Below are positions 9,844-40,839 of a stretch of 64,000 nucleotides of DNA, one piece after another. Position numbers and translations under genes: made by a program. A model generated the notes under the pieces. It did not search any database. It had not been told where the DNA came from and saw nothing but the letters and a program-made list of their open reading frames with translations. This stretch comes from an uncultured Gemmatimonadota bacterium (GTDB taxonomy: Bacteria; Gemmatimonadota; Gemmatimonadetes; Gemmatimonadales; Gemmatimonadaceae), in contig CAIVZZ010000018.1 in assembly GCA_903910555.1 (NCBI GenBank), positions 31,363-95,362 of the forward strand, given 5' to 3'. Position 1 is the first letter of the stretch; the number at the start of each line of letters is the position of its first letter.

Positions 9844-9913
9844 CCGCAGGTCTACGCGGGTTGGCGCGGGTGACCTGCTGTCTCCGACCCGCGAATACCC
9901 GCGTCAACCCGCG
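9844..9913. repeat. REP-like compound palindrome built from CGCGGGT units. Likely terminator of the ars operon.
   Basis: ACGCGGGTTGGCGCGGGT (9854-9871) pairs with ACCCGCGAATACCCGCGT (9887-9904), plus a degenerate third unit on each side. A7 run at 9833-9839 gives a T-run on the minus strand. Same unit architecture at 16034-16108. Confidence 0.6.
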
Positions 9914-11008: not shown

Positions 11009-11916
11009 GCGTCGGAGCAGCAATCAGGACCACAGCATGATTTCGCAGCGGGAAGTGAACGCGAGTCCACCGTCGGTTTCGTGCCGCGCACGAACGCGCT
11101 GATAAACTTTCCTTCGATCTGCGGAGTGATTGTCGTGACGTCGAGGCCGGTGCCCGCGAGAAACGCCGCAGCGTCCTTCGCTTCGTATACCCGCGTGGGC
11201 TCGATCGACGGGTTGTCGAACCCGGCTTCGGCGAGAAGCGAGATGAACTCTTTTTCCTCGAGCGCGCCGGCGACGCAGCCGATCCACAGCTCCATGTTCT
11301 TGCGAATGGCATCGGGTACTTCGCCGCGCACGACAACATCCGATATCGCGAAACGGCCACCCGGCTTCAGCACACGGAACGATTCCTTCAATACCGCACG
11401 TTTGTCGCCTGAGAGATTCACGACGCAGTTGGAGATGATCACGTCGACCGAGTTGTCCGGGAGCGGGATGTGTTCGATCTCGCCCTTGAGGAATTCGACG
11501 TTCGTCGCGCCGGCTTTGAGTCTGTTCTCATTGGCGAGCGCGAGCATCTCGTCGGTCATGTCGAGACCGTACGCTTTGCCGGTTGGCCCGACGCGCTTGG
11601 CCGAGAGCAGGACGTCGATGCCGCCGCCGGATCCGAGGTCGAGCACGACTTCGCCCGCTTGCAGCGCGGCGAGCATGGTCGGGTTGCCGCAGCCGAGCGA
11701 CGCGAGCAGCGCTTCGGCGGGGATGCCATTCGTTTGCCCGGCTTCGTAGAGATCGGAGGTGATCGGATCCCATGATGCGGTGGTCGAGCCGCAGCATCCG
11801 GTCGATCCGCACGCGGATACTGCGGTATCGCCGTCGGCGACGCGAGTGGCGGCTGCGCCGTATTTCTCGCGCACGACTTCGCGGAGTGCTTCGCCCTGGT
11901 TGCTCGTCATCGTCAT
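11005..11916 (-). CDS. arsM: arsenite S-adenosylmethionine methyltransferase
   Basis: 303 aa. SAM motif VLDLGSGGGID, conserved Cys pairs (CGSTGCCG, GCGNP, WIGCVAG), and ars operon context. Confidence 0.9.
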   Translation of the reverse strand: MTMTSNQGEALREVVREKYGAAATRVADGDTAVSACGSTGCCGSTTASWDPITSDLYEAGQTNGIPAEALLASLGCGNPTMLAALQAGEVVLDLGSGGGIDVLLSAKRVGPTGKAYGLDMTDEMLALANENRLKAGATNVEFLKGEIEHIPLPDNSVDVIISNCVVNLSGDKRAVLKESFRVLKPGGRFAISDVVVRGEVPDAIRKNMELWIGCVAGALEEKEFISLLAEAGFDNPSIEPTRVYEAKDAAAFLAGTGLDVTTITPQIEGKFISAFVRGTKPTVDSRSLPAAKSCCGPDCCSDA

Positions 11917-11928
11917 TGCCTCAGAGTG

Positions 11929-11946
11929 AACAAGAAATGTTGATGT
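11929..11946 (-). promoter_or_regulatory. second copy of the ACATCAACATTTnTTGTT box, 12 nt upstream of the arsM ATG (candidate ArsR operator)
   Basis: Minus-strand ACATCAACATTTCTTGTT matches the box upstream of arsR (12302-12319) at 17 of 18 positions. Confidence 0.4.
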
Positions 11947-11963
11947 ATTAGATCAAAAAAATG

Positions 11964-12290
11964 TCAGTCGCAGCATTTGATCGAGCGAGCCGCCGTGCGA
12001 TCGGTACGCCTGAGCGAGCCGACCAGCGTCTCGATTTCGTCGAGCGTGTCGCGATTGAGCGTGTAATACACCCAGCGCCCTTCGCGGCGGTCGGTCACGA
12101 TGTTGGCGTCCTTGAGCGTCTTGAGATGAAATGAGAGACGGCTCTGCGCGGCGTCCATGATATCGGTCAGCTCGCACACGCAGCGCTCGCCGCCGATCAG
12201 TCGTTCGACGATCTCGAGACGGGTTTCGTCTGAGAGGGCGTGGAACCAGGCCGCTGCTTGGGTGGTGTTGAGGGAGGTCGAGGGGGGCAT
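11964..12290 (-). CDS. arsR: ArsR/SmtB-family metalloregulator
   Basis: 108 aa. Winged-helix ELCVCEL-type motif (ERCVCELTDI) and its position at the head of the ars operon. Confidence 0.9.
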   Translation of the reverse strand: MPPSTSLNTTQAAAWFHALSDETRLEIVERLIGGERCVCELTDIMDAAQSRLSFHLKTLKDANIVTDRREGRWVYYTLNRDTLDEIETLVGSLRRTDRTAARSIKCCD

Positions 12291-12296
12291 GGGGTC

Positions 12297-12324
12297 AATA
12301 TAACAATAAATGTTGATGTGGCAA
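12297..12324 (-). promoter_or_regulatory. arsR promoter (TTGCCA, 16 nt, TATATT) with an embedded ACATCAACATTTATTGTT box. Predicts a leaderless arsR mRNA.
   Basis: -35 at 12324-12319 and -10 at 12302-12297 on the minus strand. Only 6 nt separate the -10 from the ATG at 12290. The box lies in the spacer. Confidence 0.45.
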
Positions 12325-12348
12325 GCTGTGAGCTATCAGTCTTTGAAC

Positions 12349-12392
12349 GGCCGACGTCAGACGTTAGCTGTGAGCTGCTAGCTGTGAGATAA
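12349..12392. repeat. left arm of the 44-bp inverted repeat flanking the four-helix-bundle gene
   Basis: GGCCGACGTCAGACGTTAGCTGTGAGCTGCTAGCTGTGAGATAA. Its reverse complement matches 12853-12897 at about 40 of 44 positions with one 1-nt indel. Confidence 0.8.
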
Positions 12393-12481
12393 ACGGCCGA
12401 GTTACAGGACCGCGCGTAGAATTGTCGCGAAGTGCGTTCGATGGATCACGGATCGGGCGATCGGACGTCGTAGCTTGGGAG

Positions 12482-12844
12482 ATGCAGAACTACCGACGGC
12501 TTTCGGTTTGGAAAAAGGCGCATGCGATCGCGCTAAATGTTCGCGCGCTGACGGAGCGGATTCCGCCAGACGGCAACCGGGGACTCATCGATCAACTCCG
12601 GCGCGCATCGCTCTCGATTCCGGCTAACATTGCCGAAGGCAGCAGCCGGCAGACCGACAAGGATTTCGTGAAGTTCCTGAACATCGCCCTCGCATCAACT
12701 ACAGAGGTGGAGTACCACCTGGAGTACGCAGGTGATGCCGCGATCGTCCCGCAATCCGAATGCAATCTCCGCCGGCAGGAACTAATTGAAATACGCAGAA
12801 TGCTAGCTGGCCTGATCAACTACCTTCGTGGCGCAAATCGGTGA
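12482..12844 (+). CDS. four-helix-bundle protein (23S rRNA intervening-sequence protein family, Avd-like fold)
   Basis: MQNYRRLSVWKKAHAIAL..., IPANIAEGSSR and STTEVEYHLEYA are hallmark motifs. The ATG at 12482 gives the typical 120 aa. The ORF track TTG at 12422 is probably an over-extension. Confidence 0.85.
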   Translation: MQNYRRLSVWKKAHAIALNVRALTERIPPDGNRGLIDQLRRASLSIPANIAEGSSRQTDKDFVKFLNIALASTTEVEYHLEYAGDAAIVPQSECNLRRQELIEIRRMLAGLINYLRGANR

Positions 12845-12852
12845 TGAAGTCG

Positions 12853-12897
12853 TTATCTCGCAGCTAACAACCCACAGCTAACGTCTGACGTCGGGCC
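12853..12897. repeat. right arm of the inverted repeat flanking the four-helix-bundle gene
   Basis: TTATCTCGCAGCTAACAACCCACAGCTAACGTCTGACGTCGGGCC, complementary to 12349-12392. Confidence 0.8.
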
Positions 12898-12998
12898 TTT
12901 CAGAGCTCTCAGCTCCCCGTTCCGATGACGCCTGCCGTCCGGCGGCTTTGCCCTTCGCCCTGCCCTTCCTAAACCATTTGCCCTTCGCCATTGTCCTA

Positions 12999-13017
12999 CC
13001 TTCAGACAATCTGAAGG
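12999..13017 (+). promoter_or_regulatory. palindrome CCTTCAGA-caa-TCTGAAGG overlapping the padR ribosome-binding site (candidate PadR operator)
   Basis: 8-bp perfect arms, 7 nt upstream of the ATG at 13025. PadR regulators typically autoregulate through dyads. Confidence 0.35.
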
Positions 13018-13024
13018 AGTCACC

Positions 13025-13381
13025 ATGTCAGACCCGCGCAGCGATCTGCTCCAAGGCACCCTCGAAATGCTGGTCCTCAAAACGATCGCATTCGAGCCGA
13101 TGCACGGCTGGGGAATCTCTCAGCGCATTCAGCAGCTGTCGCGCGATGTCTTTCTCGTGACCCAGGGTTCGCTCTACCCCGCGCTGATTCGCATGAAGCG
13201 TCGCGGTCTGGTGAAAACATCGTGGCGCGTGACGGAGAACAATCGTCGTGCCCGCTACTACGAAATCACTGTGGCCGGCGAACGTGAGCTCGCCGCGGAG
13301 CGCGTGAGCTGGGAGCGCGCTTCGTCCGCGGTGAACTGGATCATGGGCGCGCAACGGTTTGCTGCGGGAGGCGCCGCATGA
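13025..13381 (+). CDS. PadR-family transcriptional regulator
   Basis: 118 aa. LEMLVLKTI..PMHGWGI.QRI and GSLYPALIRMKRRGLV are winged-helix PadR motifs. Confidence 0.9.
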   Translation: MSDPRSDLLQGTLEMLVLKTIAFEPMHGWGISQRIQQLSRDVFLVTQGSLYPALIRMKRRGLVKTSWRVTENNRRARYYEITVAGERELAAERVSWERASSAVNWIMGAQRFAAGGAA

Positions 13382-16014
13382 GCGCGTTCTCCGACTTCAT
13401 CGAGCGCGCCCGCGCCCTGCTCTTCCGCTCGCGTGAAGAACGCGAGCTGCAGGAAGAGCTCCGCTTTCATCTGGACATGGAGGCCGAGCAAAACCGACGC
13501 GCCGGCATGAGCGACGACGAAGCACGCCGGCGCGGCCACATCGCGCTCGGCGGTGTCGAGCGCACGAAGGAGGACGTTCGCGACGCGCGCGGCACACGAT
13601 ATCTCGAAGACATTGCCGGCGACGTCTCGTTCGCGCGTCGCACGCTTGCGCGCAGCCCCGGGTTCGCGATTGTCGCGATTCTTACGCTGGCGATAGGGAT
13701 CGGCGGCACGACGGCGGTTTACAGCGCGGTCGACGCGGTGCTCGTCCAGCCACTGCCCTATCAAGAGCCCGGCCGGCTCGTCCGCTTGTATCAGTACTTC
13801 AACCAGAAGATAGATCAGCACAATTTCGTCTCGCCGGTTCAGTTTTTCGACTATCGATCCAAGCTGGCCGCGTTCGACGGTGCCGCCGCCCTATTCACCT
13901 ATAGCGAGGCCGGTGCGGATGTCGGCACGGGCGACCGCGTGCGCCGGATACGCATCCTTCATGTCAGCTCCGACTATTTCGACGTCGTGCGCACGCGGCC
14001 CAGGCTCGGCGCACCATTCGGGAGAGAGAGTGAGAACGGCGCGCCGCTCGCAATCGTGAGCGACGGCTTTTGGAAAACGGAACTCCAAGGCGATCCTGCT
14101 GCAGTCGGCCGAACCGTCATGCTCAGCGGGGTCGCGTACACCGTCGTCGGCGTGATGCCGGCGGGCTACGCGGATCCGCTTGTCCCCGCGGTCGACGCGT
14201 GGCTGCCCGGCGATCTTCGCGAAGGGCTGGACATCACTCAGGCGAACAATCACTACCTGTCCGTCATCGCGCGCCTGCGCTCCGGCGTGACCATCGAGCA
14301 GGCGCAGGGCGAACTCGACATCCTCAGCGCGCAACTCTCAGAGCGATATCCTCAAGGCCGCGACATTCACGCGCGAATCTATCCCCTCAAGGACGATATC
14401 GTCGGCTCCGCGAGCCGCGCGCTTGAGATCATGCTCGGCGCCGTTGCTCTCGTGCTGGTGCTGGTGTGCGTGAACGTCGCGAATCTCTTACTGGTGCGTG
14501 GATCGGACCGGGCGCGCGAGTTTGCGGTGCGCTCTGCGCTCGGCGCCGAGCGGTCGAGGCTTGTGCGGCAAATGCTGATCGAGAGTCTTACGCTCGCGCT
14601 GGCCGGTGATCTGGCGGGCCTCGTGTTTGCGCGCGTTGCAATGTCCGGGATCGTCGCGCTCGGTTCCGGTTCGATTCCGCGACTGGCAACACTGGATCTC
14701 GATCCGCGCCTGCTCGCCTTTTCCGTCGTAATCGCGACGTTGTGCGCCGTCGGATTTGGAATGGCTCCCGCGTTGCGCGCGGCACGCACACAGCCCGGCG
14801 ACGTGCTGCGCGATGAGTCGCGCGGCTCCACTGGAGGCGCAGGGCAGATCCGGCTCCGCGAATGGCTCGTGGTGTCGCAGGTCGCACTCGCATTCGTGCT
14901 GCTCGCCGGCGCAGGGCTGTTGCTTGCGAGCGCGCGGCAGATCGGTCAGGTGGAGCTCGGAGTGAACACGGGCAGCGCGCTCGTATTCGATCTCAGTCTT
15001 CCGTATGCGCGATACGATTCAACCGCGCGCGCACGAACGTACGAAGAGATTGCGAAGAACGTCGAGACGATTCCAGGCGTCATCGCGGCGGGCGGCGTGT
15101 CGAAGCTTCCGGCGACCGGTAATTACAACTCGTGGGGCATGACCGTTCACAGCGGTCCGCTGAACGGCACGAAAAATGGCAACGGTGAGGCGGAGAACCG
15201 CATCGTCTCCGGCGACTACTTCAAGGCGGCGGGGATCCCGGTGCTCGAAGGGCGCGTGTTCGATGCCCGCGACGACAACGCGGCGCCAAATCGCGTGGTT
15301 GTCAGCGCGAACCTCGCCAAGCGCATGTATCCCGGAATAAGTGCGCTGGGCCAGCGGCTGGAGACAGGTAATCACCAGAGCGAGATCATTGGCGTGGTCG
15401 GCGATGTCGCGACAAACGCCGAGGGAGCGGATGCGCAGTATATCTACCATGCGCACACGCAGTTCGCGGGAGACCGCGTCTGGTCGCTCACGCAAATCGT
15501 GCGCACCGTCAGAGCGCCTGACGCGATGATCGCGAACGTACGGCGCCTGATTTCCGGCGTCGACCCGCTTCTCGTGATGCACCGGCCGTCGAGCTTCGCC
15601 GATGCGGTTGGGCGCGGTGAGGCGCAGCGCGCGTTCACGCTGCGCATCCTGGCGAGTTTCGCGCTCGTCGCGCTCGCGCTTTCTGCCTTGGGAATATTCG
15701 GCGTGCTCTCCTACGGCGTGCGACTGCGGTCGAAGGAGTTCGGCATTCGCATGGCGCTCGGGGCCGGCGCCGGCGAGATCAGGCGAATGGTTTTGCGACA
15801 GGGACTCACCGTGACCGCGATCGGAATCGGCGCGGGATTGGTTGGGGCGCTGATGCTGTCGCGCCTGATGGCGTCGCTCGTATTTCGGGTGAGCACGCTT
15901 GATCCGGCAGTGCTTGCGGCGGCTGCTTTGTTTATGGTCGCCATTGCATCAGTGGCGGCGTATCTGCCCGCAAGACGCGCGACGGCGGTCGATCCTCGAG
16001 CGGTGTTGCAGTAA
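13378..16014 (+). CDS. ADOP-family permease (duplicated FtsX/MacB-like ABC permease)
   Basis: 878 aa. Conserved N-terminus LFRSREERELQEELRFHLDMEAE, two FtsX-type 4-TM modules, and a 4-nt overlap with padR. Confidence 0.85.
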   Translation: MSAFSDFIERARALLFRSREERELQEELRFHLDMEAEQNRRAGMSDDEARRRGHIALGGVERTKEDVRDARGTRYLEDIAGDVSFARRTLARSPGFAIVAILTLAIGIGGTTAVYSAVDAVLVQPLPYQEPGRLVRLYQYFNQKIDQHNFVSPVQFFDYRSKLAAFDGAAALFTYSEAGADVGTGDRVRRIRILHVSSDYFDVVRTRPRLGAPFGRESENGAPLAIVSDGFWKTELQGDPAAVGRTVMLSGVAYTVVGVMPAGYADPLVPAVDAWLPGDLREGLDITQANNHYLSVIARLRSGVTIEQAQGELDILSAQLSERYPQGRDIHARIYPLKDDIVGSASRALEIMLGAVALVLVLVCVNVANLLLVRGSDRAREFAVRSALGAERSRLVRQMLIESLTLALAGDLAGLVFARVAMSGIVALGSGSIPRLATLDLDPRLLAFSVVIATLCAVGFGMAPALRAARTQPGDVLRDESRGSTGGAGQIRLREWLVVSQVALAFVLLAGAGLLLASARQIGQVELGVNTGSALVFDLSLPYARYDSTARARTYEEIAKNVETIPGVIAAGGVSKLPATGNYNSWGMTVHSGPLNGTKNGNGEAENRIVSGDYFKAAGIPVLEGRVFDARDDNAAPNRVVVSANLAKRMYPGISALGQRLETGNHQSEIIGVVGDVATNAEGADAQYIYHAHTQFAGDRVWSLTQIVRTVRAPDAMIANVRRLISGVDPLLVMHRPSSFADAVGRGEAQRAFTLRILASFALVALALSALGIFGVLSYGVRLRSKEFGIRMALGAGAGEIRRMVLRQGLTVTAIGIGAGLVGALMLSRLMASLVFRVSTLDPAVLAAAALFMVAIASVAAYLPARRATAVDPRAVLQ

Positions 16015-16033
16015 GAGAAGAAGAGAAAACCTT

Positions 16034-16108
16034 TTGCCACGGGTCTTCGCGGGTTCACGCGGGTTTGTAAATGTTTGACCCGCGATTACCCGCGTAAACC
16101 CGTGGCAA
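16034..16108. repeat. REP-like compound palindrome of CGCGGGT units between convergent genes (bidirectional terminator candidate)
   Basis: TTGCCACGGGTCTTCGCGGGTTCACGCGGGT (16034-16064), 13-nt loop, ACCCGCGATTACCCGCGTAAACCCGTGGCAA (16078-16108). Same unit structure as 9844-9913. Confidence 0.65.
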
Positions 16109-16113
16109 ATATT

Positions 16114-16857
16114 TTATTCTTTTCTTGCAAGCACGAGCATCTCGCTGGACTTCCGGGAGAGCGCCCGATCCTTCCAGCCGTCCCATGCCTGCTCGACAAT
16201 CAACCCCGCATCCGCGCAGAGCTCGGCAACGCGCGTCGCCGTATACAGTCGGATTTTGTGTTCCCGTTCGACGGCCCTCTTCTTTCCCTTCACGGTCGTG
16301 CGAACGGTCAGCACTCCGGAAAGCGGATCGAAGCTCCGCTCATGCCCGATCATCGTTCCATCGTTCGACGTCCACCAATCCCGCGTGATGAACGCGCGCA
16401 CGACGCCATCTCGGCTCCCGCCATGCCAGAGCAGTACTCCGCCCGGCTTAAGCACTCGGGCGAATTCGCGAATGACTTTTGCATCGTCGGTTGGATGCGT
16501 AAAAAACCCAAAGCTCGTGAAGAGATTCAGAACCGCATCGAACCGGCCACTCCATTTCTTCGGCAGCGTGCGCATATCGCCGCGCTCATATCGCAGATGC
16601 GTTCCCGTGCCGCGCGCCTTGGCGCGCTTCAGCAACTCGAGCGAGTAGTCGAGGCCGGTAACGTCGAATCCAGCTTCGGCGAGCAAATGCGCGTGCCGTC
16701 CCTGGCCGCACGGGACATCGAGAATGCGCGATTCCGACGGGAGTTCGAGCACTTCCATAATCCGCGCGACATCGCGCCGGTCGTTTTCGAGCGCAAAGAT
16801 CGGCTCGTATTCGAGCAGATACTGTGCGTCAAAATAGTCACGCCACCATTCGCTCAA
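16114..16857 (-). CDS. class I SAM-dependent methyltransferase
   Basis: Motif I ILDVPCGQGRH and post-I/II LKPGGVLL. The TTG at 16857 overlaps the TGA of the mutase gene (TTGA). The ORF-track start at 17214 would overlap the mutase by 360 nt. Confidence 0.75.
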   Translation of the reverse strand: MSEWWRDYFDAQYLLEYEPIFALENDRRDVARIMEVLELPSESRILDVPCGQGRHAHLLAEAGFDVTGLDYSLELLKRAKARGTGTHLRYERGDMRTLPKKWSGRFDAVLNLFTSFGFFTHPTDDAKVIREFARVLKPGGVLLWHGGSRDGVVRAFITRDWWTSNDGTMIGHERSFDPLSGVLTVRTTVKGKKRAVEREHKIRLYTATRVAELCADAGLIVEQAWDGWKDRALSRKSSEMLVLARKE

Positions 16858-38179: not shown

Positions 38180-38275
38180 GCGAGTTAAATCGTTATTTGT
38201 TGGTTAGTTAACCGACGTTTCTAGTCATTCCAATTTTCTACTATTAACCAACCAACAAGAAACGAATTAACTCGC
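38180..38275. terminator. long AT-rich palindrome (32-bp arms, 32-nt loop) flanked by A7 and T4. Bidirectional terminator or MITE-like element.
   Basis: GCGAGTTAAATCGTTATTTGTTGGTTAGTTAA (38180-38211) pairs with TTAACCAACCAACAAGAAACGAATTAACTCGC (38244-38275), 28 of 32 complementary. Lies between the convergent lexA and trpD genes. Confidence 0.6.
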
Positions 38276-40722: not shown

Positions 40723-40839
40723 TGCGTTTTCGCTTTTTGCTCAGAGTGAATAGCACGCGGCTGTCGGCGCAGAGCTTCAGCCTCGCAGCTGTTAGCTCTC
40801 AGCTTGAAGTCGCCTGTGCACGCGGCTACTTTTCTCAAG

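Follow-up and report, generated by a model that had tools for sequence, protein, structure and literature searches.

A window of 64 kb from the genome of an uncultured member of the Gemmatimonadaceae, that is the whole stretch of 64,000 nucleotides analyzed in this work, contains a gene for a four-helix-bundle protein that is enclosed by a long inverted repeat. The cassette lies between an ars operon and padR: its left neighbors are arsR-arsM-MIP-arsC on the minus strand, and its right neighbors are padR and a gene for a MacB/FtsX permease on the plus strand. The genome comprises 3.2 Mb in 32 contigs with 62.6% G+C, is estimated to be 100% complete and carries the cassette on contig C18. As we argue below, there is an even chance that the cassette represents the master, the copy that bears the gene, in a family of foldback repeats that is tied to its own four-helix-bundle protein in a manner resembling the relation of REPIN repeats and RAYT genes. 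The parts of the locus are the following.

12297 to 12324, minus strand: promoter-like site of the ars operon (TTGCCA-16-TATATT, extended TG), adjoining the insert and lying outside the element
12326 to 12960, plus strand: whole inserted segment, ~635 bp relative to the empty arsR/padR site of the sister species G031
12321 to 12345, plus strand: outer extension of the left arm with one further AGCTGTGAGCT word (direct-repeat family D1), pairing with 12900-12915 in the RNA fold
12346 to 12392, plus strand: left (5') arm, consisting of the GACGTCAGACG terminus followed by the 7-nt words TTAGCTG, TGAGCTG, CTAGCTG and TGAGATA
12393 to 12416, plus strand: inner left arm up to the GCGCG apex, common to the gene-less copies and, in the alignment of master and gene-less copies, unpaired with the inner right arm in the gene-bearing copy
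12417 to 12481, plus strand: leader within the loop, with a GATGGATCAC box (12440-12449) and TAGCTT (12471-12476), the latter 5 nt before the ATG
12482 to 12844, plus strand: gene for the four-helix-bundle protein of 120 amino acids, its TGA stop codon (12842-12844) falling in the inner right arm
12831 to 12852, plus strand: inner right arm GGCGCAAATCGGTGATGAAGTC, kept by the gene-less copies as CGGTGATGAAGTCGTT or as a compensated variant
12853 to 12899, plus strand: right (3') arm, reverse complement of the left arm
12900 to 12960, plus strand: remainder of the insert to the right of the arm (TTCAGAGCTCTCAGCTCC...), of which the first 16 nt pair with 12321-12345

The two arms (12346-12392 and 12853-12899) are 47 nt each, 87% complementary and separated by 460 nt, and they form the top-scoring inverted repeat within the window. 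In BLAST the arms match each other over 50-53 nt with 87-88% identity (E = 4.5e-12). When 300 random intervals of 360 nt from the same genome were treated as controls, the best flanking inverted repeat scored 18.6 bits on average. Since none of these intervals exceeded 30.7 bits, and in view of the E value for the arms, the inverted repeat of the cassette lies far beyond chance. Both arms pair in the predicted minimum-free-energy fold of the RNA, with pairing extending outward to ~12324/12915 and a z score of -4.1 versus shuffled sequences.

The 120-residue product of the open reading frame (ORF) starting with the ATG at 12482 belongs to PF05635 (E = 1.1e-31, 109.6 bits versus a cut-off of 33.8) and TIGR02436 (E = 4.9e-33, 113.6 bits versus a cut-off of 24) and matches the solved pentameric protein XCC0516 from Xanthomonas (PDB 2GSC, E = 8e-15). 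In a preliminary description of this DNA, the gene had been assigned to the four-helix-bundle family first known from intervening sequences (IVS) of 23S rRNA, it had been placed between the ars operon and padR within an inverted repeat, and the arms had been proposed to form an RNA helix closing an ORF-containing loop of ~460 nt. The family matches, the neighboring genes, the arms and, as a prediction, the RNA fold bear this out, and the same is true for an extra unit of the AGCTGTGAGCT type outside the left arm, which is present at 12321-12335. A related string that had been pointed out at 40776-40798 does exist, but it lacks a partner arm, is not matched by the cassette arms in BLAST searches and was therefore dropped as a member of the family.

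The four-helix-bundle ORF is the sole ORF of the cassette. No catalytic domain was found in the cassette, nor did it yield a match in Rfam, PADLOC or PHROGs. The protein is under purifying selection, with a ratio of nonsynonymous to synonymous substitution rates (dN/dS) of 0.12-0.17 for the cassette gene versus its relatives and an overall range of 0.06-0.17 at saturated dS. The G+C content at third codon positions (GC3) of the PF05635 genes is 0.66, about two standard deviations (SD) below the genome mean of 0.75 (SD 0.04).

Leader boxes like those of the cassette recur at matching distances in 25 relatives. Two classes of leaders are apparent, one with TAnnTT 5-8 nt before the ATG, which includes the TAGCTT of the cassette, and one with a GGAGG Shine-Dalgarno sequence; the former could correspond to an internal promoter that gives rise to leaderless mRNA. 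A scan for sigma-70 promoters returned no plus-strand promoter at the cassette, and no plus-strand terminator was called there. The gene upstream of the cassette is divergent, and 4-5 of the 11 PF05635 genes in the genome are antisense to both neighbors. Because the leader boxes within the loop are conserved and the upstream gene is divergent, we infer that the gene is probably expressed from inside the hairpin and that its own mRNA lacks the 5' arm.

Inverted repeats were surveyed throughout the genome with 11-mer seeds followed by local alignment of each left arm with the reverse complement of the right arm. Loop lengths proved to be bimodal: ~115 elements have loops of 0-80 nt with stems of 50-170 nt, and ten or eleven have loops of 428-594 nt. 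The latter coincide exactly with the PF05635 cassettes. Genome-wide, ~134 hairpins are gene-less, most of them lying shortly after a stop codon, and clustering of the arms by BLAST resulted in ~18 families. Each of the nine largest families (37, 18, 16, 9, 9, 8, 8, 8 and 5 members) contains exactly one gene-bearing copy, and the tenth gene is accompanied by a single gene-less copy of its arms. A master is thus present in 9 of 9 families with at least five members versus 1 of 9 with two or three (hypergeometric P ~2e-4, by our own arithmetic). Upon random placement of 10 genes on 150 elements, the genes fell into ten different families in 1.4% of trials, and in just 0.006% of trials were all nine largest families filled as well (P = 6e-5). 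Two features of REPIN-type systems are therefore found in this genome, namely dispersed intergenic palindromic repeats (134 hairpins in ~18 families) and, for the nine largest families, a single gene that is flanked by the family repeat in inverted orientation.

The family of the cassette itself comprises partial copies and eight full gene-less ones (C13:186890, C13:35651, C15:301340, C2:36856, C3:161658, C4:122377, C5:31396 and C6:159634). Altogether its arms match ~23 other places in BLAST, and its left arm is homologous to the left arms of eight gene-less hairpins elsewhere in the genome. Where the gene would be, the gene-less copies carry a loop of ~10 nt; they align with the master over ~70 nt per side, up to the GCGCG apex. 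The gene segment (~12417-12830) is located exactly at the apex of the hairpin between GCGCG microhomologies, and the stop codon of the ORF resides in the inner right arm CGGTGATGAAGTCGTT, a part that the gene-less copies keep. When seven gene-less copies are folded jointly, they form an uninterrupted stem of 55 pairs, and compensatory double changes are seen at 12 of these.

The window also contains a hairpin at 38180-38275 with 32-nt arms (GCGAGTTAAATCGTTATTTGTTGGTTAGTTAA and its reverse complement, 88% complementary). The words of this hairpin are similar to those of family 1 (CGAGTGAACTGTTAACCACTAACTGTTGGTCGGTTAAC), and it may be a diverged gene-less copy. Two smaller hairpins at 9844-9913 and 16021-16121, consisting of (A/T)CGCGGGT words with a period of ~10 nt, are situated just behind the stop codons of arsC and of the MacB permease gene, respectively, and thereby bracket the block formed by the ars genes, the cassette, padR and the permease gene. 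They constitute a different, shorter repeat type for which no four-helix-bundle gene was identified.

The architecture of the cassette is shared by the other PF05635 genes of the genome. All 11, including those of a divergent subfamily of ~160 amino acids, are bracketed by inverted repeats of 45-170 nt, so that the inverted repeat is not unique to the ars/padR locus, a possibility which had been raised beforehand as a point that would speak against a cassette of this kind. The paralogues are 38-65% identical to the cassette protein. Their arm sequences are copy-specific and built of short repeated words. The closest protein relatives are encoded in genomes of Gemmatimonadaceae and Gemmatimonadales, and the number of PF05635 copies within the genus ranges from 0 to 22. 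Most of the 29 copies found in 30 related genomes, the majority of compared relatives being metagenome-assembled genomes, have arms as well, often as arrays of four units of 7-8 nt such as GGAGTCA, GGGTGTA, TAGGGGC or ACGCACAG. One copy in G006 (L056, G006:C192) is frameshifted after ~14 codons and is either a decaying gene or the result of an assembly error.

More distant homologues were sampled as the 80 closest protein relatives with 36-56% identity. They originate from at least ten phyla (Chloroflexota, Acidobacteriota, Bacteroidota, Planctomycetota, Verrucomicrobiota, Nitrospirota, Cyanobacteriota, Proteobacteria, Actinomycetota and others); plasmid-borne homologues in general are mostly cyanobacterial. 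Flanking inverted repeats with a score of at least 16 are present at 54 of 78 testable loci versus 1 of 72 shifted controls, and 44 of 46 periodic arms have a period of 7. Many of the arm words share a (T/A)(C/A)AG(C/T) core (TCAGCnn, TTAGCnn, TAAGCnn, TAAGTnn), and this core resembles the words TTAGCTG, TGAGCTG and CTAGCTG of the cassette (nnAGCTn). Such a core, shared across phyla, is compatible with recognition of the words by the protein.

The distribution of gene-less copies among related genomes was compared with that of the resident genes. On the whole, a genome's gene-less copies go with the arms of the master that it contains. Arms of family 1 gave 64 hits in this genome, 55 in G007 and 57 in G037, and few in G031 and G038. 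Masters with family-1 arms occur in G007, G038 and G031, and the cognate protein is 80-86% identical. In G006, G008 and G002, the orthologous gene has other arms and family-1 hairpins are absent; G008 possesses gene-less copies of its own master's arms. Four genomes that are more distant within the order likewise have many gene-less copies of the arms of their resident cassettes. No PF05635 gene is contained in the sister genomes G009 and G016, and in a cross-genome census at score thresholds of 18-26, which capture the short arms of 4 x 7 nt of other genera that a threshold of 28 misses, 0 hairpins were found in 686 kb, compared to 5.3 per 100 kb here.

Occupied and empty sites can be distinguished for both forms of the element. 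For the cassette, the comparison of such sites that had been suggested in the preliminary description revealed an empty ars/padR site in the sister species G031. The flanks on contig C50 of G031 match positions 11074-12317 (83%) and 12958-14498 (80%) of the window and are 8 bp apart, so that the segment 12326-12960 is present here and absent there. As only G031 shares the junction, the event is not polarized and may have been an insertion or a deletion. The boundaries of the insert were set by eye, and MAFFT failed to place the right flank. An equivalent ars promoter (TTGACG...TATGTT) exists at the empty site. In our genome the insert adjoins the -35 element of the ars promoter, and the cassette parts the ars control region from that of padR; in G031 the two are only ~105 bp apart. 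The closest relative of the cassette gene (77% identity at the nucleotide and 69% at the amino acid level) is found elsewhere in G031 and G006, the G006 copy being the frameshifted one. In the genome studied here, a hairpin that lacks the gene and belongs to another family occupies the corresponding locus (C5:100631-100818).

For gene-less copies, empty sites were identified in three cases in G007 and G008. The three empty-site alignments are poor; judged by eye, one of these insertions starts 1-3 nt behind a stop codon and shows no duplication. At one gap between convergent genes (C15:301340), all six species examined have a hairpin, and these hairpins belong to four unrelated families. The gaps at C5:100631-100818, C15:301340-301465 and C29:72221-72392 are insertion hot spots, which hold a cassette, a gene-less hairpin of another family or hairpins of unrelated families, depending on the species. 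Some cassettes, on the other hand, are old and vertically inherited, such as the one at C11:21050, which is syntenic in at least ten species. At this locus the mean nucleotide identity across 10 species is 0.65 for the ORF and 0.34 for the arms (0.22 for shuffled arms), and the complementarity of the arms within each element is 0.82 on average. The arms therefore diverge faster than the gene and yet stay complementary.

The reading to which we give an even chance can be put as follows. A long imperfect palindrome of 7-nt words carries at its apex a probably self-expressed PF05635 gene, the product of which, a homologue of the ring-forming Avd and S23p proteins that bind nucleic acid, would recognize the word arrays of its own arm family. 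Through such cognate binding, each hairpin family would be linked to a single gene and could propagate or persist, such that the gene-less copies would depend on the protein. In the absence of a transposase, the catalysis would have to come from replication or repair enzymes of the host, and the stem might act as DNA or as RNA. The cassette is not a member of the REPIN-RAYT systems proper, because a Y1 transposase is not present.

Several points weigh against this interpretation. Binding of the protein, dependence of the gene-less copies on it and the mode of insertion are all inferred from sequence comparisons, and movement of the element and the participation of a host enzyme are presumed. 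The occurrence of one gene per family would also be expected if the gene-less copies were deletion derivatives of a master that rarely duplicates, and the words shared across phyla could also reflect the common descent of whole cassettes. Two of the masters have only one other copy of their arms, and the family sizes derive from single-linkage BLAST clusters that include a few nested entries. Genome G021 has 13 genes and only 1-2 hairpins in 238 kb, and therefore the presence of the gene alone does not yield gene-less copies. Conversely, G037 has its ~57 family-1 hits and no cognate orthologue, the best match being 47% identical in an assembly that is 72% complete. In the by-eye comparison with G031 no target-site duplication is visible at the ars/padR insert, and no conserved target sequence was seen among the insertion sites. 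Furthermore, the gene contexts depend on our own crude gene caller based on codon usage (2503 genes, 88% coding).

It is conceivable, if unlikely, that host processes or another enzyme spread the hairpins as REP-like repeats, one copy per family carrying the gene as a mere passenger, or that the gene-less copies arose by simple deletion; in either case the protein would be functionally independent of the arms. The position of the gene exactly at the apex is in line with this view, since a single deletion or insertion between the GCGCG microhomologies could convert one form into the other, as are the lack of a catalytic domain and of a visible target duplication, the many hairpins without a detected cognate gene in G037 and the many genes with few hairpins in G021. 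It is difficult to reconcile, however, with the low probability that chance would place exactly one gene in every one of the nine largest families, with the concentration of masters in families of five or more members, with the strong purifying selection on the protein and with the period-7 word core shared by the arms of distant homologues in other phyla. We consider it similarly improbable that the hairpins are elements useful to the host at the 3' ends of genes, serving for example as mRNA protectors, transcription barriers or structural sites in DNA, with the protein as a trans-acting regulator; the arms around its own gene would then bring about autoregulation, and mobility would be incidental. 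The genomic placement of the hairpins agrees with such a regulon. Among the 134 gene-less hairpins, 127 are intergenic, and 56 (44%) are located between convergent genes, an arrangement that accounts for 15.5% of intergenic gaps overall (p = 2e-14). Hairpins between co-directional genes follow closely behind the upstream stop codon, and gene ends are a median 23-24 nt away. Orthologous sites in different species have kept hairpins, purifying selection acts on the protein, the synteny of the C11:21050 cassette attests to long vertical retention, and long RNA stems would be stable in a bacterial class in which no RNase III was found. Nevertheless, copy numbers within the genus go down to zero and several healthy genomes have none, the same site is occupied by unrelated families in different species, which is more like turnover than like a conserved regulatory site, and the low GC3 suggests foreign or poorly adapted genes. 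A T-run (at least 4 within 25 nt) follows only 25 of 135 hairpins, so that they are not classical terminators, and a reading as intrinsic terminators was discarded. An attempt to orient the hairpins by G-C skew was also abandoned: among the hairpins, 72% have a 5' arm rich in G facing a 3' arm rich in C, and so do 9 of the 10 masters. This polarity is real, but it reads alike on both strands of a palindrome and is therefore uninformative on the direction of transcription.

By far the least probable explanation, in our estimation, is the one originally put forward, in which the arms pair in a transcript and an enzyme of the RNase III type cuts the stem, thereby freeing the ORF loop or fragmenting the host transcript. 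In geometry, gene family and stem heptamers the cassette does correspond to the 23S IVS that RNase III excises in Coxiella and Leptospira (PMC4990558), the arms pair in the predicted RNA fold, and in 4-5 of 11 cassettes the neighboring genes would read the whole element antisense. However, the RNase III models PF14622, PF00636 and TIGR02191 did not match in this genome, tblastn with a genuine RNase III gave a best E value of 0.67, and an ERLEFLGD-type signature is absent from all six frames of the genome. None of 66 genomes from the same class yielded RNase III, compared to 14 of 15 from other classes of the phylum. Among the relatives it was found in 1 of 41 genomes on a contig of 1.5 kb (L250, G043:C294), and this enterobacterial-like sequence (ERLEFLGDSVLSFVV...) is probably a contamination of the metagenome-assembled genome. 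Throughout the class, an enzyme that nearly all other bacteria possess seems to have been lost. In addition, there is no known transcript that spans both arms, as the upstream gene is divergent and the downstream gene co-directional, and the apparent expression signals are internal to the loop. Mismatches in the arms of the masters comprise 38 G-U pairs in the sense and 22 in the antisense direction alongside 71 transversions (54%), and those of the gene-less copies 240, 206 and 545, respectively; there is no clear excess of G-U wobbles, a comparison that cannot separate function at the DNA level from recent copying. Excision by RNase III is thus not borne out, and of the alternative left in the preliminary description, a mobile or RNA-processed module, the idea of mobility is supported by the empty site and by the inverted repeats that flank all 11 paralogues, whereas RNase III processing is not. 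The location of the cassette outside rRNA stands, since the single 23S gene (2954 nt versus 2925 positions in the model) contains no ORF-bearing insert.

The element studied in this work resembles several known systems without being identical to any of them. The 23S IVS of Leptospira and Coxiella burnetii consist of a stem with tandem heptamers and an S23p ORF, are excised by RNase III and have long been suspected to be mobile (PMC4990558). They share with the cassette the PF05635/S23p family, a stem of ~28-47 bp, an ORF loop of ~400-460 nt and the tandem heptamers (PMC4990558). The cassette differs by its intergenic position in a promoter region, its apparent own expression signals, the gene-less copies of its arms and a host in which RNase III is not detectable; lying in such a host and between arsR and padR, not in helix 25 or 45 of a 23S rRNA gene, it was rejected as an rRNA intervening sequence proper. 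In REPIN-RAYT systems, intergenic palindromic repeats are tied to a single-copy gene that is flanked by inverted repeat copies (PMC3116915, PMC3337134), and several parallel pairs of gene and repeat per genome as well as repeats at the 3' ends of genes are common to these systems and ours (PMC3116915, PMC3337134). Membership was dismissed as the Y1 (HUH) transposase/RAYT family PF01797 is absent from the genome and the cassette gene is instead a PF05635 gene for a four-helix bundle of 120 amino acids without known catalytic activity; moreover, the stems of the hairpins are far longer here (50-170 nt) and consist of 7-nt words.

An autonomous transposon with its miniature inverted-repeat transposable elements would likewise present a gene-bearing copy beside many short two-ended copies and filled and empty sites between species. 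In our case, the ends differ among paralogous elements and evolve faster than the gene, and there is a single gene-bearing copy. This classification was dropped as well, given that the cassette has no transposase gene and no target-site duplication was seen at its insert. The Avd protein of diversity-generating retroelements has a homologous fold and binds nucleic acid and the reverse transcriptase of the retroelement (PMC10053308). Here, a reverse transcriptase (PF00078) is absent from the whole genome and there is no pair of template and variable repeats, which led us to reject a retroelement of this type. Finally, dispersed heptamer arrays have been described for Xanthomonas and Nostoc (PMC4692102) and for Geobacter metallireducens (PMC2700814) with no gene family named. 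Just as the repeats reported here, they consist of tandem 7-nt units, often about four and often in convergent inverted pairs, and are intergenic and transcribed (PMC4692102, PMC2700814), while in the genome studied here each array family has a cognate PF05635 gene. Our literature search did not retrieve any paper that ties PF05635 genes to dispersed families of hairpins. The ten parallel pairings of gene and family, the reciprocal filled and empty sites, the gene-free sister genomes that are also free of hairpins and the absence of RNase III are what the present genome contributes.

The orphan family PF05635/TIGR02436 is very large, and since the early 1990s no explanation has been found for the intervening sequences of rRNA to which it owes its name. 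We tentatively propose, as a possibility short of an even chance, that PF05635 proteins are sequence-specific partners of a widespread, hitherto undescribed class of foldback elements, in which the protein ring would read the period-7 words of its own arms and license the persistence and spread of its family without a transposase. The 23S IVS and the heptamers of Xanthomonas, Nostoc and Geobacter would then be special cases, and the elements would thrive in the present class without RNase III. With ten pairs of gene and family, filled and empty sites and gene-free sisters without hairpins, the genome represents an unusually clean natural experiment, from which a testable function follows: the protein would bind the arms of its own family by reading their 7-nt words. 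An apparently RNase III-free class with genomes that contain more than 100 long stems in transcribed regions raises the question of how double-stranded RNA is handled. The relation of a gene to a population of repeats, known from RAYT and REPIN, would gain a second case that does not involve a transposase, and the dispersed heptamer repeats of many phyla might find an explanation.

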